From the NCBI GenBank assembly GCA_964016885.1, contig CAXHJY010000527.1, forward strand, positions 1 to 27,051: a stretch of DNA of 27,051 nucleotides, in the 5' to 3' direction. This DNA is from Eledone cirrhosa (taxonomy: Eukaryota). A program made the position numbers and the translations under genes. Below, one piece after another: positions 3,117 through 27,026 of this stretch (position 1 is the stretch's first letter; every line of letters starts with the position of its first letter). The notes beneath the pieces were generated by a model. The model saw only the letters and a program-made list of their open reading frames with translations. It searched no databases and was not told the DNA's origin.

Positions 3117-3534
3117 CTAAGGCGGCTAAAATTCCTGAGATCCATGGACGAGTTCTCTCCAGCGGTCTCTGTCCCTCATTATCGCTGCCATGTCCTGCGT
3201 CTCCAACAGACCAGTGTCTGTCCTTAGGGCATCAACATACGTTAACCTTGGTCTTCCTCTTCTAGTGTGTCCATGTAGCGGCTCCCACAGGAGCACTGAG
3301 TGCAATGTCAACTCTGGATGCCGGTGAATATGTCCAGCTAAACTCAGTCTCCTCTGTGTCACTTTTGAGTTGACTTTTGGGATGCTCCCATACAGCTCTG
3401 AGTTTTTCATCCTCAGTGTATACTGATTAATGTTCAGAGCCATCCTCAGCATTCTCGTGTAGCACCCATCCACCATCTTAGTGGATGGGTGCTACACGAG
3501 AATGCTGAGGATGGGTGCTACACGAAATGGGTGC
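3117..3534 (-). mobile_element. 5'-truncated RTE-clade LINE inserted in a (TA)n tract
   Basis: Carries the RTE C-terminal ORF fragment and a very short 3' UTR running into (AT)n; (TA)n on both flanks; rearranged 5' junction at 3481-3534. Confidence 0.85.
3126..3476 (-). pseudogene. C-terminal fragment of an RTE-type reverse transcriptase ORF
   Basis: Motifs DGCYTRMLRMALN, RRLSLAGHIHR, RRGRPRLTYVD and DRDRWRELV are typical of RTE-clade C-termini; no RT core present. Confidence 0.85.
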
Positions 3535-7750: not shown

Positions 7751-7944
7751 AATAATTGTTTCTACTTTTGGCACAAGGCCAGAAATTACCCGGTGCATTA
7801 CTGATACTTTATTTTATCGACCCCGTACGGATGAATGGCAAAGTTAACCTCGGTGGGATTTGAACTCAGAATGGCAAGAGCCGTAACTCTATGCGTCAAA
7901 GCATGCGTCAAAGCATGGCGTTACCCTCTACCGATACTGCCAAT
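7751..7944 (-). mobile_element. tRNA-derived SINE (short subfamily)
   Basis: Closely similar to 8973-9160; B box GAGTTCAAATCCC on minus; internal 12-bp tandem duplication atgcgtcaaagc. Confidence 0.9.
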
Positions 7945-8132: not shown

Positions 8133-8345
8133 CGGTGGATTGGCAGTATCAGTAGAGGGTCGGATGCCACGCTTTGCAGTATAGAGTTACGGCCCTTTAT
8201 GATCTGAGTTCAAATCCCGCTGCGGTTAACTTTGCCTTTCATCGTTACGGGGTCGATAAAATAAAGTACCAGTTTCGCATTGGGGTCGATTTAATCGACT
8301 TCCCCTTCCCCCAACATTGTTGGCCTTCTGCTTATATAAGAAATC

Positions 8346-8843: not shown

Positions 8844-8972
8844 TATATATATTACATTCTAAGTTGAGGAAGACATATTTGAGAAATCTCGAACTTGTGC
8901 CTTGTCTCCCAAAATCAGATCATAGAAAATATTCAAATAATAAATCCGAGTATTTAACCATTATAAAATAAT

Positions 8973-9160
8973 TGTTTCTACTTTAGGCACAAGGCCAGCA
9001 ATTACCCAGTGCATTACTGGTACTTTATTTTATCGACCCGGTAAGGATGAAAGGCAGAGTTAACCTCGGCGGGATTTGAACTCAGAATGGCAAGGGCAGT
9101 AACTCTATGCGTCAAAGCATGGCGTCCAACCCTCTACCGATACTGCCAATTCACCGCCCT
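8973..9160 (-). mobile_element. Full-length tRNA-derived SINE with 20-bp target-site duplication
   Basis: TSD tttaaccattataaaataat at 8953-8972 and 9161-9180; A box TGGCAGTATCGG and B box GAGTTCAAATCCC on minus. Confidence 0.95.
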
Positions 9161-9514: not shown

Positions 9515-9571
9515 ATGAGATTCCTGATGATTTCTAAAGAATGAAACAGTTCTAGTCCTGTAGAATCTCAT
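9515..9571 (+). ncRNA. Type-I hammerhead ribozyme
   Basis: atgagattc-CTGATGA(9524-9530)-t ttct aa agaa t-GAAA(9543-9546)-cag ttctagtc ctg-TA-gaatctcat. Perfect 9-bp stem I and GUA triplet, in a ~137-bp island between (TA)n tracts. Confidence 0.85.
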
Positions 9572-9572
9572 C

Positions 9573-9604
<32 letters not shown>

Positions 9605-9757
9605 CATATATAAATGGAAAAAAGTGAAGCGAAATTTCATTTTTCACTCTTAGAACGGCGGTTACTTAAATATAAGTATGTATACGTACATACTTATGTA
9701 TACAGACGTACAGTAGTATGTATATATATACATACACGTACAAATATATATATATAT

Positions 9758-10260
9758 GTACGTATGGATTTACCGAACAATTATTAAAATGATCGGTTTG
9801 TTTGTAAATAAACATCCCGAATTAAGCCGTACAGTGTTTAGCAATCATCGTTGCCCTTTTGTTCAACACTGACAAAGGAACGATATATGTGTGCATGTAT
9901 GTATATATATACATATTACTGTACGTCTGTATACATATATGTATGTACGTATACATACTTTCATTTTTTCCATTTATGGTTTTCGGTGCGCCCGGCCGAT
10001 TAATTCCCTCGATATGCAAATTAGGCTGCTCAGCCGTTAATATGCATAAGGAAAGTATATACTTTCAGACGTTCAATCATCTGGCAGGAAGGTATACGAT
10101 GCTGACGATAGCTAATAAGTTTGAAACTAGTACATCGTTCCTTTGTCAGTGTTGTACAAAAGGGCAACGGTGGTTGCTAAACACTGTACGGCTAAATTCG
10201 GGATGTTTCTTTACCAACAAACCGAGCATTATAATAAATGTTCCGTAAATCCATACGTAC
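9758..10260. mobile_element. Penelope-like pLTR/retrozyme-like element with 127-bp inverted copy of its 3' part
   Basis: 9758-9884 is the reverse complement of 10134-10260 (10 mismatches, no gaps by hand alignment). Interior has octamer 10014-10021 and a hammerhead; AATAAA near 10233-10238; (TA)n flanks. Confidence 0.75.
10096..10138 (+). ncRNA. Minimal type-I hammerhead ribozyme with palindromic stem III
   Basis: acgatg-CTGACGA(10102-10108)-t agct aata agtt t-GAAA(10123-10126)-ctag-TA-catcgt. 6-bp stem I, ACTAGT palindrome, cleavage predicted after 10132. Confidence 0.85.
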
Positions 10261-10297
10261 ATATATATATGTGCATGTATGTATATATGTATACATA

Positions 10298-10389
<92 letters not shown>

Positions 10390-10834
10390 CATAAATATCC
10401 AATGATATGAATTCATAATAGGAGATATCGAACTTTAACAAGAGACAAGCTGTATAAAATGTAAAAAAAACATATTTCATTAGAGTATCATATTTAAACT
10501 TAACACACATTTAAAATATAGATACCTGACAAAAATCATATATTTCTCCCTCATATGTATCCTTCACAAATCATGAATACATTTCAGCAAATATCGGTGT
10601 AGTCTGATATTCGATTTGGATCGTCAGTGAGGGAAATTGATCTATCTAACCATACACACGTTATCACACAGAACTGAAGGTGACGATAGAAACATGAAAA
10701 AAAATCGATGCACGCTTTCGTCGCCTGCAAGGATATGAAAGTGTTCACGCCAACTAGAAATAGCAGTCTAACCTCTGAACATCTTAAAAAGCTCAAACAA
10801 ATAGGAGCATAAATATATTATATATATATTACAA

Positions 10835-11746: not shown

Positions 11747-12272
11747 TGTATATATGTATTTATATATACATATATATATATTTATATATACATATATATA
11801 TTTATATATACATATATATATATACATATATATATATATATTTATATATACATATATATTTATATATATTTATATATACATATATATTTATATATATTTA
11901 TATATACATATATATTTATATATACATATATATATATATATTTATATATACATATATATATATATATTTATATATACATATATATATATATATATTTATA
12001 TATACATATAAATATATATATATTTATATATACATATAAATATATATATTTATATATACATATATATATATATATTTATATATACATATATATATATATA
12101 TTTATATATACATATATATATATATATATTTATATATACACATATATATATATATTTATATATACATATATATATATATATTTATATATACATATATATA
12201 TATATATATTTATATATACACATATATATATATATTTATATATACATATATATATATATATTTATATATACA

Positions 12273-12306
<34 letters not shown>

Positions 12307-12406
12307 CATATATATTTATATATACATATATATATATATATATTTATATATACACATATATATATATATTTATATATACATATATATATATATATTTATA
12401 TATACA

Positions 12407-12440
<34 letters not shown>

Positions 12441-12571
12441 CATATATATTTATATATACATATATATATATACATATATTTATATATACATATATATATA
12501 TATACATATATACATATATTTATATATACATATATATATATATACATATATACATATATATTTATATATAC

Positions 12572-12603
<32 letters not shown>

Positions 12604-12828
12604 TTATATATACATATATATATATATTTATATATACATATATATATATATTTATATATACATATATATATATTTATATATACATATATATATATATATA
12701 TACATATATACATATATATTTATATATACATATATATATATATATTTATATATACATATATATATAAATTCATATATATATCTATATATATATATATATA
12801 TTTATATATACATATATATATATATATA

Positions 12829-12880
<52 letters not shown>

Positions 12881-12981
12881 TATATATATATATATATATT
12901 CATATATATATATATATATGTGTGTGTATATATATATATATGTATATATATATAATTATATATATGTATATATATATATGA

Positions 12982-13018
<37 letters not shown>

Positions 13019-13495: not shown

Positions 13496-13608
13496 ATAGG
13501 AGAAAGTATGACCCCGATGGCAGAGCTCAAGCCGTTTCGACGGTTATTTCTAAGTCCAGAAATAGCCGTAAAACGGCTTGAGCTCTGCCGTCGGGGTCAC
13601 ACTTTTTT

Positions 13609-15165: not shown

Positions 15166-16002
15166 TACTATATTACTTGTTCTTTATATTTGTACAATTT
15201 AATTTCAACTGTAAGATTTGTTTTTATTTAATATCGTATCTATTTCTGCTTCCTCAGTAAAGACCGAATCCATTAGTAATCCCTTCACAAATTACTTAAA
15301 AGTTGTTGAAAATGTAAGTGAAAACTCTAAGAGAAAGTTCCAGCTCCATACTTACAAAGTTTAAACACTGCCGCATGTGACATGAAAACGTATCACAAGG
15401 TATTTGTAATGACACCGTTCGTGAACCGTGACAAAAACAGCAACAAACTTTCGCATTCATTAAATGTTCAATTTGTAAGGCAGTCAATTTAATTAACTAA
15501 ATATGAACATGATTTTGTGAAATGCCGAATTAATAAAGCGAAACAGTTTTTATTGATGCACTCAAAATAAAGATTATTCCAATTCACATTGTATTGCGTA
15601 CTACACCGATATGTCCAGTTTATGCTAAACGTATGTAATGTTGCAGTCGGGGTAATGGTTTTCTATGTTTTCCGCTGAAATGTTTTCATGAAAATTTATT
15701 ATTTATGCATCCGGATCAATCTAATTTGTACCAGTAATATATTGATTTCTTTGCTGCAACTACTCGTCTTCCAAACAAAGTCCTTTAGCTGTTAAAACTA
15801 TATCATAAATCAATAGCTGACACGTTTCATCTTCACCTAATAAAGAGATAAAGTTTTAAATTCTGTTTTTTTGTTCTGTGTTGTTGCAGATATTGTTTAA
15901 ATGAATATAATTAACAGAGACAACAAAATGTTAATTGTTATTTCAACACAAGTTGACATACACTGGCCAGTAATTAAATTAGGTTTCTTAAAATATATAT
16001 TT

Positions 16003-17024: not shown

Positions 17025-17205
17025 TGAATTGGCAGTATCGGTAGAGGGTCGGACATGCTTTCCAGCTGAGTTACGTGCCTTTATGATCTGAGTTCAAATC
17101 CCGCCGAGATTAACTTTGCCTTTCATCTATACGGGTTCGATAAAATAAAGTACCAGTAAAGTACTGGGTAATTTCTGACCTTGTGCCAAAAGTAGAAACA
17201 ATTAT
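17025..17205 (+). mobile_element. tRNA-derived SINE (short subfamily)
   Basis: A box TGGCAGTATCGG, B box GAGTTCAAATCCC, 3' end ccttgtgccaaaagtagaaacaattat. Confidence 0.9.
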
Positions 17206-17412
17206 ATCTGCACTTAATAACGTAAAACGGTTGACTGTAATTGTCACTGTTTCTGGTAGGTGTTCCAAATATTGCTATAATTATACTGACATCAGGCTCT
17301 CACAGCACTACATTAACTGAACTTTTGATATTGATATTTAGCCCCTGGCTATTATGGATGAGAGATGAATCTGTTCTGTTCACATTAACGCATATATCAA
17401 TTCTCCTTTTTT

Positions 17413-17921
17413 TCGGATCCATATTATATTGTTATATCGCTCAAATATTCAATTTTGTATTATATATTTTGTATTCAAAAAAAGAAAATGGTTATAAATG
17501 GAACAAAACACCCTCTGTCTACACTATATAGAACAGCGGCAATTTCAATTTCACCAACACCAGAAACTTGATACACTACCTATCCCATCACACTAAATAT
17601 AACGGCAACTTCACCGGCATCATAATAATAATTACTATTATTATTGTCTCAAATTTTAAAAAATGTTTAATTCAAATTTTACGGGAATATGTCAACACAA
17701 AATATAATGAAAATATATATTAAACATACGAACACAAACTCATAGATACTATATCAGTAACCACAACACCACCGCTGCCACCACCCCACCACATCCATCA
17801 TCGCCGCCACCACTCATTCAATGCTACTGACACTATTCCCCTGTTAACTTGAGAGAGAAAAGGGAAGGTGGTGGTAACACTAGACAAGAGAGAGGCTAGC
17901 AAAAGATATAAATAGATTGAC
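17413..17921. repeat. Diverged copy of the non-coding repeat also at 22299-23118
   Basis: Shared blocks gctcaaatattcaa.tttgtatt, aaaatgg.tataaatggaa, ctacactatatag, tcaccaacaccagaaact.gatacac and a CAC/CGC-rich tract. Confidence 0.85.
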
Positions 17922-18199
17922 TTGGTGACCTTGCCACGGACAAACGTCTACATCAACAATTATGGGACTGCTGGCTCACCCCTTCCTCACCAACAATATA
18001 AAAAGCCCCGGCACCACCATCGACATAGCCAGCAGCAATAACAGCCAACTACAACAAAAAGTATATTATATTATTGTAATGCACTGGGTGATTGCTGGCC
18101 TGGAGTGGAGACAATTATTAATAATTTCATTCTTAAGCCACGCAATGCTCACATTAAGGAACCACTCATGATAACAACAATTTAAAAAAAACAACAAAA

Positions 18200-21100
18200 A
18201 GAAAACCCCGTGACCAAGAAATACCGGGATGGCGGCCGGCGGGGAATAGCCATGTCTCTAGGGGAGAAAGACCCCTCTAGTCTTGGTTGACACTCGTTCT
18301 AGAAGTGGTAACACGAAAAGATTACCCCTTGGCGGATAAGGATAAAACGCGACAAAATAAAGTAGATGTCTAATGATGAAATCTCATACCGGATCGGCCG
18401 TCACCCGGGTAAAAAAGGGCCGCGTCCCTCAGAGAGGAACCAGACTGGGGTCGAAAAATCAGCTAATGGTTCAAACCTTCCCATCACTTCGGAGCTGGAG
18501 ACCTCCCATAACCGGAATACTCCTACTGTTGGCCCTCCATGCTCACCACCAAGAAATCCAAAGAAAAAGAGAGAAAAATGGTCAAGGGAAGATAATAAAG
18601 AAGTCCTTGAGGCTTTCTACACTGCCATGTACTACCCATCAAATACATCGAATACAGAGCAAACATATATCAACTGGAAAAAGAAACATCCCGAAAACAG
18701 AGGCTATATTGACAGTAACAAACTAGCCAATATACGAAGAAATATTGTAAGAAAAAAGTTACTAACTGATATAGAAATTGATCAAATCAAGCTAGTAGCA
18801 CAAAGTCAGCGAAGGGAAAGTGAAGCATGTGTCAGTGAAAACGAGGTAAACTGTAACACTTCGAATCCCAGAGTTGGGGCGGAATCACTGGCAACAGAAC
18901 AAATTAAAGAAAGGAGCGAAAAAGTGGAGGGAGTGCATGCTCAGGATGAAACTCCAAATGAAAATAATGAGATCGTAAATGATAAAGAAATGAATGAGAA
19001 TGAACTTGCCAACTTGAAGGATGAAATTATGATCGAATGGATGAAAATGAAAGAATCTGACATGGGGGAACGAGACACCCTCCCTAAGATCCAGAACTCC
19101 AAACAGAACCAAAAGATAATACACAAGACTAACATAATTCTCAAAAACATTATCATCACAAACAAACTAAGCATTACTGACTTAAATCATCTCTATTATG
19201 CATCGGCTAAAGTCACCACTCACTTATGTGGAGTGAAGATGAAAAAACAAAGGAATTCCCACAAGAAATCTACTTGGCAAGATAACATCAATCGCCAAAT
19301 AAACCTTCTCCGATCTGACATAGAAATGTTAACAAACTATAAAGTAGGTGAACATGTTAAACAAACTAAACTTAGAAAATTGAAAAAAAAGTACAGTATA
19401 AGATCAACATGTGACATAGACATGCTGATAGAAACAAACAAGCAAAAAGTGTCGGCCAAAGCTGCTCGTATAAGGCGCTTTGAAAAACGATCTAGATTCT
19501 ATAAGGACAATAATATGTTCAAAAACAACCAAAGAAACTTCTACAGAAAAATTGGTAAGTCAACAATAACTGCTAAATCAATACCACCCAAGGAGGAAGT
19601 GCAAGAATTCTGGGAAAAGATCTGGGCCGAAGAAAAAGTTCATAACATACATGCACCATGGATAGACAGACAAATGAAAGAAACAGCTCACCTTGAAGAA
19701 CAAAAATGGGAAAATATAACAGTTGAACAGCTGCGCTTGGCTCTAAGAAAAACCAGCAAATGGAAATCCCCAGGAAAAGACAAAATACTAAACTTTTGGA
19801 TAAATGCCTTCACAGAGTCTCATGAGCTGTTAGCCCAACTTTACAATGAAATAGTTAAGGAGCCAGAAAAGATACCATCATGGCTAGTTAACGGCATTAC
19901 ATTCCTGCTACCGAAGAATGATGAGACAAACAATCCCAAAAATTACAGACCGATAACCTGCTTGACCACAATGTATAAAATTTTAACATCAGTCCTAACT
20001 GAATACACATATGACCACCTGATAACAAATGACCTATTTCCCATTGAGCAGAAAGGGTGTAAACGAGGCTCATATGGCTGTAAGGATCAGCTTCTGGTTA
20101 ACAAAATGATACTGGAAGATTGTCATAATAGACACAAAAATCTATCGATTGCTTGGATAGATTATAAAAAAGCATTTGATAGTTTGCCACACAGTTGGAT
20201 TGAAAAATGTTTAGAGATTTTCAAAATATCCCCCGTTATCAGGAGGTTTTTGTCATTCAGTATGAGGACATGGAGAACGACACTCCTTTTGAATAGTGAA
20301 ACAAAATCACTGGAAGCTGGAGAAGTTAACATTAATTGTGGAATTTTTCAGGGTGACTCTTTATCACCGCTTTTATTCTGCATCGCACTTATACCATTAA
20401 GTAAAATGCTCAATGAAACAAAACATGGATATAGAGTCTATGACAAAACCATTAATCACCTGTTCTACATGGATGACCTGAAACTATTTGCAAAAAATGA
20501 TGAACAATTGCAAGGGCTATTATCCACTGTGAAGCAGTTCAGTGATGACATTAAAATGGAGTTTGGACTGGATAAATGCGCCAAAGCAACGTTCACCAGA
20601 GGAAAGCTGCTGAAGAGTTCAGACATTAATCTTGATCGGGGGAACGTGATAAGAGAGCTTGATCAAGAACAAACTTACAAATATCTAGGTGTTTGTGGAG
20701 GAGACGGAATCAAGCACTCGACAATGAGGGAAAGGATAAGGAAGGAATGTTACCGCAGAGTCAGAGCAATCTTAAGAACGGAATTGAATGCAAGGAATAG
20801 GATCGATGCCATAAACACGCTTGCCATACCAGTAGTAACCTACAGTTACAATGTCATCAACTGGTCAAGCACAGAGATCCGTAGGCTCGATACAAAAATC
20901 CGAAAATTCTTAACCATGCACAGAATGCATCACCCTAAGGCAGACATAGATAGAATATATCTCCCTAGGAAAGAAGGAGGACGTGGTTTAATCCAGTTAG
21001 ACATTGCGTTGAAAACTGCAACAATTGGATTATCCACATATCTAAGGGAATCACATGATTGGATGATCAAACTCGTTTTGAAACACGAAAGCACCAAAAG

Positions 21101-22155
21101 ATCATATTCCATTACAAAAGATGCACAAAGATACAGTAATGGACTACAAATTTCAGAAGTCCCATTTACTGCTGAAATGGAAAACACAGAAAAAGCAAAG
21201 CAGGTAAAAGTAACTGCAAAGAAAGAACTGCTACAGAAACTGGCTAAGAAATGGCAAGAAAAGCCTCTGTATGGAAAATACCCAGAGCGAGCTAACAATC
21301 CTGATGTTGACAAAACTTTAACCCATCAGTGGTTGGCATCCTCTGGACTGAAATCGGAGACTGAAGGACTGATTATATCCGCACAAATCAGTGTCTGCCA
21401 ACAAAAAATTACCAAGCCAACATAATAAAAAATGGGTGCAGCCCATTATGCCGTGTATGCAAAAAACAACCAGAGACCATTGACCATATAATTTCAATGT
21501 GCAGTCCTATAGCTCCAACCGAATACCTAAACAGGCATGACAGAGCTGCACAATACATACATTGGATAATGTGTAAGCATTTTGACCTGCCCCATCAAAA
21601 GAATTGGTGGGAGCATCAACCACCTCCCATACTTGAAAAAGATCACATCTCAATCTTGTGGAACTTTAGCATCCAAACAGACCGAAAAATAGATGCAAAT
21701 AGACCTGATATAATATTGAAGGACTTTCAAAGGAGGGTATGCCTGCTAATTGATATGTCTGTTCCAATAGACAAGAATGTATCTATAAAAACATTTGAAA
21801 AATTGAGCAAGTATAAGGACCTGGAGATAGAAATTGGAAAAATGTGGAAATTGAGAACTAAAACAATACCAGTGGTTGTAGGCGCTCTGGGAATGATACC
21901 TAAGGGGTCTAACGACTACTTATCGCAAATCCCAGGAAACCCGCGTATAGGAGAAATACAAAAGATAGTACTAATGGGAACTGCCCATATACTAAGGAAG
22001 ATCCTGTCAATATAAGTACATCACAAGTCTAAACACTAAGGATGCATGTGTGAATATGTGTGTTCTTTCTTGAACATGGCGGACCTTGTTGTCTCTTGAG
22101 GTCACTGGTTGTGACTTGGTGATAACTCGTATAAACATAAAGCAAGATAAATGCA

Positions 22156-22215: not shown

Positions 22216-22324
22216 TTTTAACATATTTAAATCATTTGTGAAATAACAACTCTTAGTACAAATGCTACGTAAAGCACCCGGCTTGAGCCCCAAAAAAATT
22301 CGGACCCAAAATATATTGTTATAA

Positions 22325-22964
22325 GGCTCAAATATTCAAATATTCAACTTTGTATTGTACACTGTATATCCAAAAAAAAATGGCTATAAATGGAAGAAGA
22401 AGAACCCTCCCCTCCTCTCCTCTGGCTACACTATATAGGACAGCTAAACTCACCAACACCAGAAACTAGATACACCACCCACCCCATCATCTGTGTACAC
22501 TAAACACAACAGCATTTTCACCTTCACCGCCACCGCTCACTACGGCCATCATTACCACCACTATCCCATCACCGCCGCCACCACCCCTTGACTCCTTCAC
22601 TGCTGCTGCCACCGCTACAGCACCATCACTACAGTAATACGGCTCAAATATTCAAATATTCAACTTTGTATTGTTCACTGTATATCCAAAAAAAAAATAA
22701 AATGGCTATAAATGGAAGAAGAAGAACCCCCCCCCCTCCTCTCCTCTGGCTACACTATATAGGACAGCGAAACTCACCAACACCAGAAACTAGATACACC
22801 ACCCACCCCATCATCTGTGTACACTAAACACAACAGCATTTTCACCTTCACCGCCACCGCTCACTACGGCCATCATTACCACCACTATCCCATCACCGCC
22901 GCCACCACCCCCTGACTCCTTCACTGCTGCCGCCACCGCTACAGCACCATCACTACAGTAATAC
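22325..22964. repeat. Near-identical tandem duplication (22325-22640 and 22641-22964)
   Basis: Both units start ggctcaaatattcaaatattc and end cactacagtaatac; few substitutions plus A/C-run length differences. Confidence 0.95.
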
Positions 22965-23349
22965 GGTCGCATCACCGCCACCACTGCCTCGGTATCGACA
23001 TCACCACCACCACTGTCTCAGTATCGCCAACGCCGCCAGTTTCTGCTGGCTACCACTTCCACATTATAGAATTCCTACTACTAACAAAGAGGAAGGCATC
23101 AAAATATATAGATAGACTCAAAAGAAAAAAGAAAAAACAAACAACAAAAGCAGCACAGCAACAACAGTAAAAAACGAGAAAAACAGAGAAAAACAAAAAC
23201 AAAAAAAGAAACCCCAAAAACGTAAAGAAAATAAGAATGTAGAGAGAAGCAGGCGGACGGACAGAGAAGAGGGGGGAAAAAGTAAAACTTAAAAAACAAA
23301 AACTAAGTCAGACATTCGAATACTACATTACAATGAAACTTATGCTTAT

Positions 23350-26300
23350 TCATTTTTGGGGCCCTTTCTGCCCGTGTGTTTGTTTGTTTATGTGTGTCCG
23401 TATACAGCGTGGTGATAATGCCACACAAGGGCCAAGTGGGATGGCGGATCCACAGATGGCTATGTAAACATACATTCGCCAATCCTCGATAAGAGTGTTT
23501 AAATATCGAACATAAACAGTTCGAATAACGGTGAAATGGAGACTAGAACGTCATGTGACAGACTCTCACCCAACAGGTGCCCCCTGGCTCAGCAGCAGGA
23601 ACCTGACTGTCAACCAAATACTGCTGATGTTGGAGGAAGAAGAAGAAGGAAAGGGGCCAGAACCAACTGGACGAAAGAATTGAATAGAACTGTTATGCAA
23701 TGCTACCTGAAAAGTAACCCCAAGGAGAGGGGCTACAGGAGACGGATGCATAACATCTGGAACGAGATTGGTTTATTTAAATTAGATGAACAAAAATTGG
23801 CCGGGCAGGCTCGGGTAATAAGAACTAATGGGTGGATAAGCGAGCTGGAACTGGAGGAACTGAGCAGAGAGAATGGCTTGGAGATGGCGGGTGTAGTATG
23901 CCAGACAAGCGAGCCGGCGGGAAATGAAGGTGAGGAGGTCCTGAGAACGGAGGAACCACCCGAAGCAGACAATGATCTGAATACTGAGATAAATAATACC
24001 TGGAACAGAGATACGGCCACTGAGGAGATGAATGCTGACGGGCTAGGACAAGATTCGGTTGACATCCTAAATTTAGTGGTAGATGAGTTGAACAATGATA
24101 GTGGGAGACCTATGAACCTAAGATTTGTAGACAGGAAAAAGTTAAAAGAAACAACAGCTAAGGTAAACAAAGTCATCCCATACCTTGAGGCGAGGAGTCT
24201 TCACCAGTGCAACAATATCCTCAAAGCAACAGCAAATACGGTGAGGAAACTACTTGGTATAAAAGCGAGAGGAAACAACAGACAAGAAAGAGCAGAGCCG
24301 TGGTGGAAGAAGCGACTGAGTGGGCAAATCGGGGAAATGAGAAATGACATAGGAAAGCTTGAGTCACTACTGAATGGGACACTAAAAAACATAGGCACTA
24401 AAAATAGACTGGAAATAAAATACAAAACTAGGAGTAAAAAGCTAAATATTATCATAGAGGAATTGAAGCAACGCATTGTAGCAAAGAGTGCCAAAATCAG
24501 GCGATACGAGAACAGAGTCAGTCAGTATAAACAGAACCGCATGTTCGACAACAAACAGAAGATGCTGTTTGGACAGCTTGAGGGGAAAGAAAGAGGCAAC
24601 GACTTGATCCCTGGGGCGGAACAAGCTAAAACATTCTGGAGAGGAATATGGGAGCAGGATGTTAGACACAATGCCCAGGCAGGGTGGATTGAGACAGTAC
24701 AGAGGGAGATCGGTGAGCAGGCACAGCAACAGACTGATTTGAGTATCACAGTTGAAACTCTTAAGGGGCAAGCCAAAAAACTAACCAACTGGAAATCACC
24801 AGGCCCAGATGGTGTGCAGGGGTATTGGATTAAACATTTAACATCCCTCCACCCGAAGCTGACGGCCATGTTCAATGACTGCTTGGTGTCGGGTGAGGTG
24901 CCAGAGTGGTTGACAAAAGGTACCACAGTTCTGATAATGAAAGATCGAATCAAGGGTAATGATGTTACCAACTATAGACCTATCACATGTCTGCCCGTAA
25001 TGTGGAAACTGTTGACGAGCATTGTGTCTGAGGAAATCTACCATCACCTCCACACAAACAACTTGTTGCCGGACGAACAGAAAGGATGCCGAAAGAAGTC
25101 ACGTGGTACAAAGGACCAGTTGCTTATTGATAAGATGGTAATGGGGAATTGCAGGAGGAGACACACTGATCTTGCCATGGGATGGATAGACTACAGAAAG
25201 GCATTTGACATGGTGCCTCATTCCTGGATCACCAAAAGCCTGGAGACCTTCAGGGTGGCAGATAACATCAGACAGTTGCTGGGCAGGAGTATGGGGTCCT
25301 GGGAGACAGAGTTGACATCAACTGGAGTATCCTTGGGAAGCGTGAAGATCAAGAGAGGTATCTTCCAGGGAGATAGCCTGTCCCCTCTGTTGTTTGTCCT
25401 TGCCCTGATGCCCTTGACCATTATGCTGCGAAAAGTGAGAGCAGGATACAAGTTGGGAAGGGGAGAGCTTACCATCAATCACCTCCTCTTCATGGACGAT
25501 CTTAAGCTCTTCGGGAAAAGTGAGAAGGAGTTGGATGTGCTTGTTGACACTGTCCGTATTTTCAGCAGTGATATATGTATGCAGTTTGGTATTGGTAAAT
25601 GTGGAGTCATTGTGATGAGGAGGGGTAGGTTGAGCAGAAGTAACGGGATCCAGATACCAACAGGTGAGATGATAAAGGAAATTGACTCTGAGGAAGGATA
25701 CAAGTATTTGGGCGTTCTGGAGGCTGATGGCATAAAGAACAACAAAATGAAGGAATTGTTAAGAACTGAATACATTCGGAGAGTAAGGAGCGTATTGAAG
25801 TCACATCTGAACAGCAGAAATGCCATAAGCGCAGTAAATTCCCGAGCTGTGTCTATTATTAGGTACAGTGCGGGAATTCTGAGATGGAATGTTGCTGAAC
25901 AAAAAGAAATGGATAGGAAGACTAGGAAGCTATTGACTATCTACAACATGTTCCACAAGAGGAGTGATGTCGATAGACTCTACCTAAGGAGATCTGAGGG
26001 TGGAAGAGGGCTTATCAGCATAGAGGACTGTGTTCAGATGGAGAAAAACAACCTATACAAATACGTGACCTATAGTAAGGAGCCAATGCTCAGAGCTGTA
26101 CTGAAGGAGGGGACAGTAGGCCAGGGGATACCCAAGGAGGAAATAACATCAAGGAGGAAGAGCAGCCTTAAGGGAAAATCCCTTCATAGTACCTTCTTTG
26201 AGAAAACTGAATTTAGAGATCCACAGACATGGAACTGGTTGAGAAGAGGAGACCTCAAAAAGGCTACAGAAGGAATGCTAATGGCTGCGCAGGAGCAGGC

Positions 26301-27026
26301 CCTCAAAACGAAGTGGTTGAAGCACCATATCTACAAGGAGGAGGCTAGCCCACTGTGCAGGATCTGTGGAGAGAGAGAGGAGACTGTGGCTCACATTGTG
26401 TCCGAGTGTAAACACCTGGCCCAGACCCACTATAAGGGCTGGAGACACGATGTGATGGGCAGGGTGATCCACTGGCACCTGTGCAAAGCAAACAATCTAC
26501 CACATTCTGAGAAATGGTATGAGCATAGGCCAGAGGCGGTGATGGAGAACAGTCAGGTGAAGGTGCTGTGGGATTTTAGGATACAGACGGACAAAAAACT
26601 GGGACACAATAGACCTGACCTGGTGGTTGTGGACAAAGAAAAAAGATCGTGCCTGATTGTGGATGTGGCCTGCCCGTTCGACACGAGAGTGCAAGAGAAG
26701 GAGAGGGAGAAAATTAACCGATACCAGGACCTAAAGTGGGAGGTGAAAAGGATTTGGAACTGCCATGAAGTCAAAGTGATCCCGATTGTCATAGGCGCAC
26801 TGGGGACTATCTCCAAAGGTTTCCGGGGATGGTTAAAGAAAATCGGCCCCTTCACGCTTTTTGGAACGCTTCAAAAGGCATGCTTGCTTGGAACGGCAAG
26901 AACCCTCCGATACGTCCTGAATATCTGAGGCTGCAGGTAGTGGCTTGATATTCAATCCAACGGACTTTCCAGTTAACCAACATCAATGACTGAGATTCAA
27001 GGAATAATAATAATAATAATAATAAT
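23350..27026 (+). mobile_element. R4/Dong-clade non-LTR retrotransposon, copy 2 (different family; 5' boundary approximate)
   Basis: Intact single ORF, ~75-nt 3' UTR, (TAA)n tail 27003-27026. Confidence 0.93.
23536..26928 (+). CDS. Intact 1130-aa RT / CCHC / restriction-like endonuclease polyprotein
   Basis: N-terminal RTNWTKELNRTVMQCY (parallel to REKWSREDNKEVLEAFY in copy 1), KSPGPDG, NYRPITCL, WIDYRKAFD, GIFQGDSLSP, FMDD, CRIC-x8-H-x4-C, RHD, RPDLVVVD...IVDVACP...EKINRYQDL. Confidence 0.96.
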   Translation: METRTSCDRLSPNRCPLAQQQEPDCQPNTADVGGRRRRKGARTNWTKELNRTVMQCYLKSNPKERGYRRRMHNIWNEIGLFKLDEQKLAGQARVIRTNGWISELELEELSRENGLEMAGVVCQTSEPAGNEGEEVLRTEEPPEADNDLNTEINNTWNRDTATEEMNADGLGQDSVDILNLVVDELNNDSGRPMNLRFVDRKKLKETTAKVNKVIPYLEARSLHQCNNILKATANTVRKLLGIKARGNNRQERAEPWWKKRLSGQIGEMRNDIGKLESLLNGTLKNIGTKNRLEIKYKTRSKKLNIIIEELKQRIVAKSAKIRRYENRVSQYKQNRMFDNKQKMLFGQLEGKERGNDLIPGAEQAKTFWRGIWEQDVRHNAQAGWIETVQREIGEQAQQQTDLSITVETLKGQAKKLTNWKSPGPDGVQGYWIKHLTSLHPKLTAMFNDCLVSGEVPEWLTKGTTVLIMKDRIKGNDVTNYRPITCLPVMWKLLTSIVSEEIYHHLHTNNLLPDEQKGCRKKSRGTKDQLLIDKMVMGNCRRRHTDLAMGWIDYRKAFDMVPHSWITKSLETFRVADNIRQLLGRSMGSWETELTSTGVSLGSVKIKRGIFQGDSLSPLLFVLALMPLTIMLRKVRAGYKLGRGELTINHLLFMDDLKLFGKSEKELDVLVDTVRIFSSDICMQFGIGKCGVIVMRRGRLSRSNGIQIPTGEMIKEIDSEEGYKYLGVLEADGIKNNKMKELLRTEYIRRVRSVLKSHLNSRNAISAVNSRAVSIIRYSAGILRWNVAEQKEMDRKTRKLLTIYNMFHKRSDVDRLYLRRSEGGRGLISIEDCVQMEKNNLYKYVTYSKEPMLRAVLKEGTVGQGIPKEEITSRRKSSLKGKSLHSTFFEKTEFRDPQTWNWLRRGDLKKATEGMLMAAQEQALKTKWLKHHIYKEEASPLCRICGEREETVAHIVSECKHLAQTHYKGWRHDVMGRVIHWHLCKANNLPHSEKWYEHRPEAVMENSQVKVLWDFRIQTDKKLGHNRPDLVVVDKEKRSCLIVDVACPFDTRVQEKEREKINRYQDLKWEVKRIWNCHEVKVIPIVIGALGTISKGFRGWLKKIGPFTLFGTLQKACLLGTARTLRYVLNI

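Follow-up and report, generated by a model that had tools for sequence, protein, structure and literature searches.

A head-to-head pair of copies of a repeat with a predicted hammerhead in a TA microsatellite, with an arm that ends near the predicted ribozyme cut

The window, that is, the whole stretch of 27,051 nucleotides from Eledone cirrhosa that was analyzed here, consists of AT-rich eukaryotic DNA rich in microsatellites, and repeat-finder output on it was dominated by TA runs. In one cluster of such runs, two copies of a repeat unit were observed in opposite orientation, in the order TA run, inverted copy of 275 nt, forward copy of 415 nt, and TA run (table 1). A direct repeat within the forward copy (9883-9915 and 10263-10297, 32/35 identical) gave a period of 380 nt; the forward copy, with a GC content of 37%, starts and ends in the same segment (B). 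About 1.1 forward units with one ribozyme are present, and a tandem of two complete ribozymes is absent at this locus.

Table 1. Coordinates of the repeat copies, the predicted ribozymes, and the flanking TA runs (positions in the window).
Feature	Position	Strand	Remarks
Neighboring type I hammerhead, different sequence	9515..9571	+	Predicted helix I 9 bp, II 3 bp, III 3 bp; GUA, cut after 9562; points into left TA run
Left TA microsatellite	9573..9609		Probable target of inverted copy's 3' end; TA runs 9573-9590 and 9592-9603; tandem array 9573-9612
Inverted 5'-truncated copy of repeat unit, 275 nt	9610..9884	-	Segments C, B, Y, A going from 9884 down to 9610
Segment Y (some 40 nt)	9629..9667	-	In inverted copy, absent from forward copy; gap between alignments to 9884-9966 and 9960-9977
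Segment C' of inverted copy	9758..9884	-	5' end corresponds to 10134 (range 10131-10136)
Head-to-head junction with AT / TATAT microhomology	9883..9887		Alignment reaches 9887/10131 with one mismatch
Forward copy, 415 nt, slightly more than one unit of 380 nt	9885..10299	+	B', A', X, hammerhead, C, B''
Type I hammerhead, helix I extended	10081..10149	+	Core of the fold at 10096-10138; cleavage predicted between 10132 and 10133
Palindromic helix III ACUAGU	10126..10131	+	Predicted dimer pairing between two copies; self-duplex 6 bp, -6.8 kcal/mol
Right TA microsatellite	10300..10389		Probable target of forward copy's 3' end; TA runs 10301-10376 and 10378-10389
Neighboring type I hammerhead, different sequence	10545..10636	-	Predicted helix I 9 bp, II 7-8 bp (displaced relative to core), III 7 bp; AUA, cut at 10554; points into right TA run

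The head-to-head duplication of 10134-10260 at 9758-9884, with which the initial annotation had begun, was confirmed: the two stretches are reverse complements at 117 of 127 positions, without gaps and with their 5' ends facing each other. In contrast, the 503-bp unit (9758-10260) drawn from it did not hold, because the inverted copy extends beyond 9758 and runs on to 9610. In three local alignments, the inverted copy matched the forward copy at 9887-9715 versus 10131-10299 (154/175), 9748-9668 versus 9884-9966 (75/83), and 9628-9610 versus 9960-9977 (18/19); past segment C it thus passes into the TA-like segment B, then into segment Y, and then into the part that matches 9960-9977. Between the 3' ends of the two copies there is a difference of about 105 nt (in the inverted copy, 9715 versus 9610). 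At all 12 family-variable sites checked, both arms carry the same letter, and the 10 differences between the arms comprise five at which the inverted arm has the family-majority letter, one at which neither arm has it, and four that are unlisted. The common letters and the majority letters at the differences, with four differences unlisted, would fit one old event followed by a decay of a few per cent in each arm.

The motif at 10096-10138 is, in its predicted fold, a canonical type I hammerhead of the animal form by the definitions of PMC4209133. The conserved elements of metazoan type I ribozymes, CUGANGA, GAAA, and an NUH triplet around three helices, are all present: CUGACGA at 10102-10108, GAAA at 10123-10126, and a GUA triplet at 10130-10132, with the cut predicted after 10132. 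Helix I (10096-10101/10133-10138) has 6 bp, and 10 more pairs extend it to 10081/10149; helix II (10110-10113/10118-10121) has 4 bp and an AAUA loop; and helix III has 1-2 bp with a palindromic loop, which are canonical dimensions. The long helix II and short helix I with an ill-defined loop 1 that mark the minimal type were not found, as helix II has 4 bp and helix I has 6 bp plus the 10-bp extension. Thus, the initial reading of a complete type I hammerhead cutting after 10132 stands as a prediction, but the label minimal that it carried does not. The predicted fold also contains a UAU bulge (10093-10095), and the G10.1-C11.1 pair is absent from the base of helix II, where a U10109-U10122 mismatch is followed by an A-U pair. 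Because helix III comprises only 1-2 bp, activity would be expected from a dimer, as had been anticipated for a ribozyme with a palindromic stem III; ACUAGU is predicted to self-pair.

A hammerhead descriptor, composed with the 10096-10138 motif already known as its target, matched at three places in the window and in none of 100 dinucleotide shuffles. The Rfam hammerhead families gave no match in the whole window (E up to 1) or in 9960-10260 (E up to 10), the folding z-scores were modest (-0.40 for 43 nt and -1.64 for 71 nt), and the minimum-energy fold lacked the active core in the monomer, the dimer, and the circle. In the accessible text of the relevant sources, eight of nine predicted Xenopus hammerhead dimers did not cleave (2026 preprint, 10.64898/2026.07.22.740005), and the axolotl HHR_Amex2, which also has U-U at the base of helix II, cleaves weakly (PMC7229834).

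Three hammerhead motifs lie within a span of 1.1 kb at one TA cluster, into which both neighbors point, all three with U on both sides of the helix II base. The two neighbors differ in sequence from the main motif; for 9515-9571, the window self-comparison gave no similarity to the main unit, and 10545-10636 was missed by a relaxed scan whose helix II rule allowed only small offsets. As both neighbors combine a 9-bp helix I with a helix III of 3-7 bp, they may be active as monomers. A weak fourth match of the relaxed scan at 15187-15257 on the reverse strand, with poor helices II and III, is probably due to chance.

Several other repeats were observed in the window. A near-perfect palindrome occupies 1-1103 (1-522 versus 580-1103, 99.6% identical, with a TA center) and is either a very recent fold-back or an assembly artefact of the window edge; imperfect palindromes of 75 and 92 nt adjoin TA runs at 3440-3514 and 13509-13599. 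A TA-derived minisatellite of 1.25 kb extends over 11749-13005, and a two-copy tandem repeat of 324 bp over 22321-22966, with partial relatives at 17412-17615. Four copies of a SINE-like repeat of about 190 nt, 80-88% alike, are found at 7751-7944, 8136-8284, 8967-9153, and 17025-17205, with a fragment at 18076-18119; we assume the copy at 8967-9153 to be octopus-like. Two long reverse transcriptase frames of non-LTR type with Pfam RVT_1 matches, 18366-21425 (1019 aa, followed by a separate 172-aa frame, with a span to 22015) and 23536-26928 (1130 aa), presumably resemble Dong/R4 LINEs, and a 116-aa frame at 3126-3476 on the reverse strand, which had no Pfam match, we take to be the tail of a LINE protein.

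The 380-nt unit is a high-copy repeat family. Part of 9960-10260 was contained in 13 of the 21 listed sequencing runs; none of the runs is recorded as RNA, and the result has no bearing on expression. Four of these 13 runs were compared with 9925-10265 at 80% likeness, and seven with shares under 0.2 were left out. The family was represented by 6,778, 47, and 10 contig pieces in runs from three organisms, and by 36,518 of the 12,467,656 reads of the RAD run X19 at 80% likeness; both X19 and the run with 6,778 pieces (X1) are labeled with an organism that may not be the species of the window, and the counts are not exact copy numbers. Pattern scans had no matches in metagenome contigs, viral contigs, or prokaryote genome contigs. 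The unit is non-coding, the single 129-aa frame over it having no Pfam match, and with 380 nt, a GC content of 37%, and a type I hammerhead it falls within the range of non-coding retrozymes (150-450 bp, GC under 50%). The family depth extends over 9961-10265, with 9925-9962 skipped as repeat, and stays high to either side of the cut. At 10161 a divergent subfamily branches off, with a loose end common to 9,499 RAD reads (agreement 0.94), and it seems to join the family again near 10187. Partial joints that go back within the unit, such as 10254 to 9992, were observed in the family, and among the joints listed none is a tandem of two ribozymes.

Variation within the family was assessed from 40 of 100 variant rows. 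T10120C was present in about 99% of the family depth and turns the G-U pair in helix II of the window copy into G-C. Among these 40 listed rows, C10106T was the only variant inside the hammerhead core, at a position that is free in the core, and the 14 other core positions were free of variants, which is not significant alone (P=0.14 by chance). T10143G breaks an outer pair of helix I unless 10089 changes too. Covariation was weak: A10099T and T10135G, which would together give U-G, track each other in the RAD columns (6%/6%, 53%/50%) but less in run X4 (60%/21%), with the phase unseen.

The terminus of the inverted arm was compared with the predicted cut. In the alignment without gaps, the last identical position is 10134, and the predicted product starts one base earlier, at 10133. 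At the junction sequence GGAACGATATATGTG, however, the AT can be assigned to either side, including the TA-like partner, and the local alignment continues across the cut to 10131 with one mismatch (TACAT versus TATAT). Because of this TA-like microhomology the end is ambiguous, and judged from the sequence the true end of the arm lies within 10131-10136; the original statement that homology ends 1-2 nt from the cut thus fits the ungapped end at 10134 but is too sharp for an end blurred over six positions. For two random ends in the unit, the chance that one falls within 10131-10136 is about 2-3%. The cut site is also one of 19/296 positions with a 4-of-5 match to a TA run, so that, if joining uses microhomology, the background for an end at this place would be higher.

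The other copies of the family were then considered as an independent record of end points. Of the 18 family joints, 15 are listed, and eight of the listed joints connect opposite strands (9973/10064, 9980/10117, 9986/10142, 9987/10033, 9992/10210, 10077/10216, 10091/10204, and 10121/10150), with a different inversion point in every one of the eight. By our reading of the AATT and CATG sites, six of the eight are fixed as head-to-head by their side lengths or by record coordinates: sides of 43, 37, and 31 fit reads that begin at the AATT site 10019-10022, the stretch end matches the sides of 50 and 62, and contig record 3 displays the geometry directly. None of the 16 ends of these listed joints lies within 2 nt of 10133, against a chance expectation of 0.26; the nearest is 10142. 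As the start sites of RAD reads are fixed, only nine ends were counted as free to fall on the cut, and the result for these informative ends was 0/9 within 2 nt, which puts the upper 95% limit at 28%. With half of the junctions ending at the cut, a count of 0/8 would have a probability of 0.004. One joint of two reads and of unstated kind, 10147 to 10133, does end on the cut, and when such restarts are included the count becomes 1/24 versus 0.39 expected. Seven of the eight opposite-strand joints come from one RAD run and may include library chimeras, and junctions whose partner starts in segment B, as at the window's own junction, are poorly sampled in RAD data, as they would fall on an AATT-CATG fragment of about 75 nt that lies partly outside 9925-10265, the enzyme pair itself being presumed.

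Four apparent signals in these data were set aside. The rise of RAD depth at 10129-10152 is due to mates of 150 nt that begin at the CATG site 10274, and the contigs starting at 10131-10133 in runs X4 and X7 to a 31-letter word that ends at the subfamily split at 10161. The molecule ends 10019, 10022, and 10198 are AATT sites. Likewise, the absence of 10133 from the loose-end table was not taken as counter-evidence, since 21 rows are listed, 435 more exist, and the smallest RAD row has 811 reads.

Thus, the peak of copy 5' endpoints at about 10133 that the initial annotation had predicted was absent from this small sample (0/16 ends, and 0/9 informative ends, within 2 nt), and its proposal that the ribozyme sets the 5' end of the mobilized RNA as a rule found no support, as the ends elsewhere are scattered and the forward copy crosses the cut intact. 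The latter observation indicates that the template of the forward copy was uncut or religated. The sample nevertheless leaves room for such ends as a minority (as much as about 28% of ends), and cleaved RNA may thus still be the source of this arm; that the cut defined the 5' end of this one inverted arm is a tentative possibility.

Taken together, the results are probably best explained by an old insertion in which a 380-nt hammerhead repeat, abundant and non-coding, was placed in a TA microsatellite, likely by a Penelope-type reverse transcriptase working from tandem or circular RNA, which left two head-to-head copies; the end of the inverted arm would then be likely to reflect ordinary truncation and TA microhomology, not the ribozyme. 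In this mechanism, the ribozyme would act earlier, when as a dimer it would cut multimeric transcripts into monomers that circularize. An endonuclease would cut both strands of the TA run, and each cut strand would prime cDNA from the 3' region of the RNA. One cDNA would run for 415 nt through an uncut or religated ribozyme, the other would stop after 275 nt, and the truncated cDNA ends would be joined via the short AT/TATAT match.

The architecture of the locus supports this proposal. Penelope-like insertions are described as partial tandems with an adjacent inverted 5'-truncated copy and a bias for (TA)n (PMC8557442), and here an inverted 5'-truncated copy stands beside the 5' end of a partial tandem, with eight more opposite-strand joints listed in the family. 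TA runs border both outer ends without a discernible target duplication. The early view of a non-coding, TA-associated element is supported. In addition, a forward copy of more than one unit is consistent with copying from a tandem or circular template, which has been proposed for retrozymes (PMC7229834, PMC4209133), and animal retrozymes have been argued to derive from Penelope-like terminal repeats (2026 preprint, Li, Clavereau and Pollet, 10.64898/2026.07.22.740005). A Penelope-like protein, once purified, cuts both strands at AT-rich DNA and extends them; it starts inside its own RNA, and ribozyme cleavage is dispensable in vitro (PMC11167929). For Octopus vulgaris, recent activity of Penelope-like families is listed in a text that, in its accessible part, leaves hammerheads unmentioned (PMC13282606); this would be relevant to the window if its host is octopus-like, as assumed above. 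Against this explanation, no frame combining a reverse transcriptase with GIY-YIG was found in or beside the unit: five window frames were scanned, two with Pfam RVT_1 and none with GIY-YIG. In addition, the outer ends differ by about 105 nt, which exceeds the tail of 30-40 bp described in PMC8557442.

The main alternative retains the same insertion but takes the inverted arm as run-off cDNA of self-cleaved RNA, made by a minority route from linear monomers that begin at 10133, while most 5' ends are random; we consider this conceivable, if doubtful. It would account for an end that maps one base from the predicted product start, against a chance of about 2-3%, and for the order C, B, Y, A of the segments, which is that expected of a cut-to-cut monomer. 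The 2-read joint that ends at 10133 and the variant-free core positions among the listed rows point the same way, and retrozyme monomers with ends at the cut exist in other animals (PMC7229834). On the other hand, the base matching 10133 is missing or changed, the end is blurred, the nine informative ends elsewhere all avoid the cut, and the partner copy crosses it, which would require two different templates; moreover, the RNA-seq reads of the Anolis element, as reported in the accessible text of PMC11167929, neither began nor ended at the ribozyme cut. The extension of this reading to the family, in which a measurable minority of copies, including this arm, would be run-off cDNAs from hammerhead-cleaved RNA and the partner cDNAs would be copied through the religated site of a circle, appears unlikely.

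A stronger form, in which the ribozyme defines the 5' end of the mobilized RNA across the family as a rule, like the HDV-like ribozyme in R2, is very improbable. The single coincidence in the window and the precedent of R2 favor this form, but a result of 0/8 joints would hardly be expected even if only half of them ended at the cut, and the family depth remains high across it, with its local rise accounted for by the CATG mates.

That a DNA transposase moved the locus as a fixed unit of foldback or MITE-like type, with terminal inverted repeats of great length and with the hammerhead as a passenger, we regard as improbable in the extreme. The long inverted arms (154/175) and TA flanks are compatible with such a unit, and the read data would poorly reveal any fixed subfamily that has exactly this junction. 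However, the inversion points vary among all the listed opposite-strand joints, the arm ends are unequal (9610 versus 10299) and fade into TA without sharp mirrored termini, and the internal part is, in permuted form, a piece of the repeat unit itself. Unequal ends and variable inversion points likewise argue against the one fixed 503-bp element with terminal inverted repeats, an ordinary MITE, that the initial annotation had named as the outcome that would overturn it. It is just as remote that a later fold-back or repair at the DNA level duplicated part of a resident copy without an RNA step, or that two independent insertions met in one TA run: TA runs are self-complementary, short palindromes adjoin them elsewhere in the window (3440-3514 and 13509-13599), and three different hammerhead motifs crowd the cluster, but the inverted copy has segment Y and passes the 3' end of the forward copy, so it is no simple copy of its neighbor, and it carries the family-majority letter at half of the 10 differences (neither arm at one, four unlisted). 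Because the arms are 8% apart, an assembly artefact is excluded.

Each ingredient of this locus is already known, namely hammerhead repeats of canonical type, truncated copies in inverted orientation, targeting of TA, and, in R2, 5' ends defined by a ribozyme. In the open-licence literature we found no report of genomic 5' ends piled at a Penelope-type hammerhead cut, nor of this family, and the supplements of PMC4209133 and PMC7229834, which list further invertebrate motifs, might include this one. The role of the hammerhead in Penelope-like elements is called unclear in PMC8557442. The contribution of the locus is therefore modest: a retrozyme-sized unit with a canonical hammerhead bears the inverted-copy and TA-target signature of Penelope-type insertion, which fits the mobilization by Penelope-like enzymes that has been proposed, but not proven, for retrozymes. 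If 5' ends were in excess at the cut across the family, this would amount to in vivo evidence that the ribozyme has a role, and the present data do not display such an excess. If the minority reading from a cleaved template were true, the genome would be a fossil record of hammerhead cleavage in vivo during Penelope-type retrozyme mobilization, and the role of the ribozyme could be counted from end-point maps.

In the R2 retrotransposon, which is said to be the established case, the cut of an HDV-like ribozyme reportedly marks the 5' junction of the element. The present family differs, as R2 has an HDV-like fold in an autonomous, site-specific LINE, whereas in the present case other copies show no clustering of their ends at the cut. 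The minimal hammerheads of Penelope-like elements (Cervera and de la Pena 2014, PMC4209133) are likewise type I with a palindromic helix III region and a predicted dimer, and paired motifs on opposite strands 100-700 bp apart are described in that source; however, they have a long helix II (7-8 bp in Schistosoma), a helix I of 4-5 bp, and G10.1-C11.1, versus 4 bp, 6 plus 10 bp, and U-U then A-U here. Likewise, most animal Penelope-like elements have a minimal ribozyme, unlike the canonical one observed here. The locus also differs from the Penelope-like insertions with pseudo-LTRs described in the accessible text of Craig et al. 2021 (PMC8557442) and Frangieh et al. 2024 (PMC11167929) in that it has no RT/GIY-YIG coding sequence and its outer ends are about 105 nt apart versus 30-40, but it shares with them the partial tandem, the inverted 5'-truncated copy adjoining its 5' end, the TA target without duplication, the hammerhead in the repeat, and the unequal outer ends. 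Compared with animal non-LTR retrozymes (Cervera and de la Pena 2020, PMC7229834; 10.64898/2026.07.22.740005), the locus, known from DNA alone, has about 1.1 forward units and one ribozyme versus a tandem of two complete ones, and it has an inverted truncated partner, whereas the word inverted is absent from the main text of PMC7229834. It is like them in its canonical type I hammerhead, its non-coding unit of 380 nt (mussel units have 350-390 bp, PMC7229834), its GC content of 37%, and its many copies, and within that source it resembles the axolotl HHR_Amex1 in the palindromic tetraloop of helix III and HHR_Amex2 in the U-U mismatch at the base of helix II.
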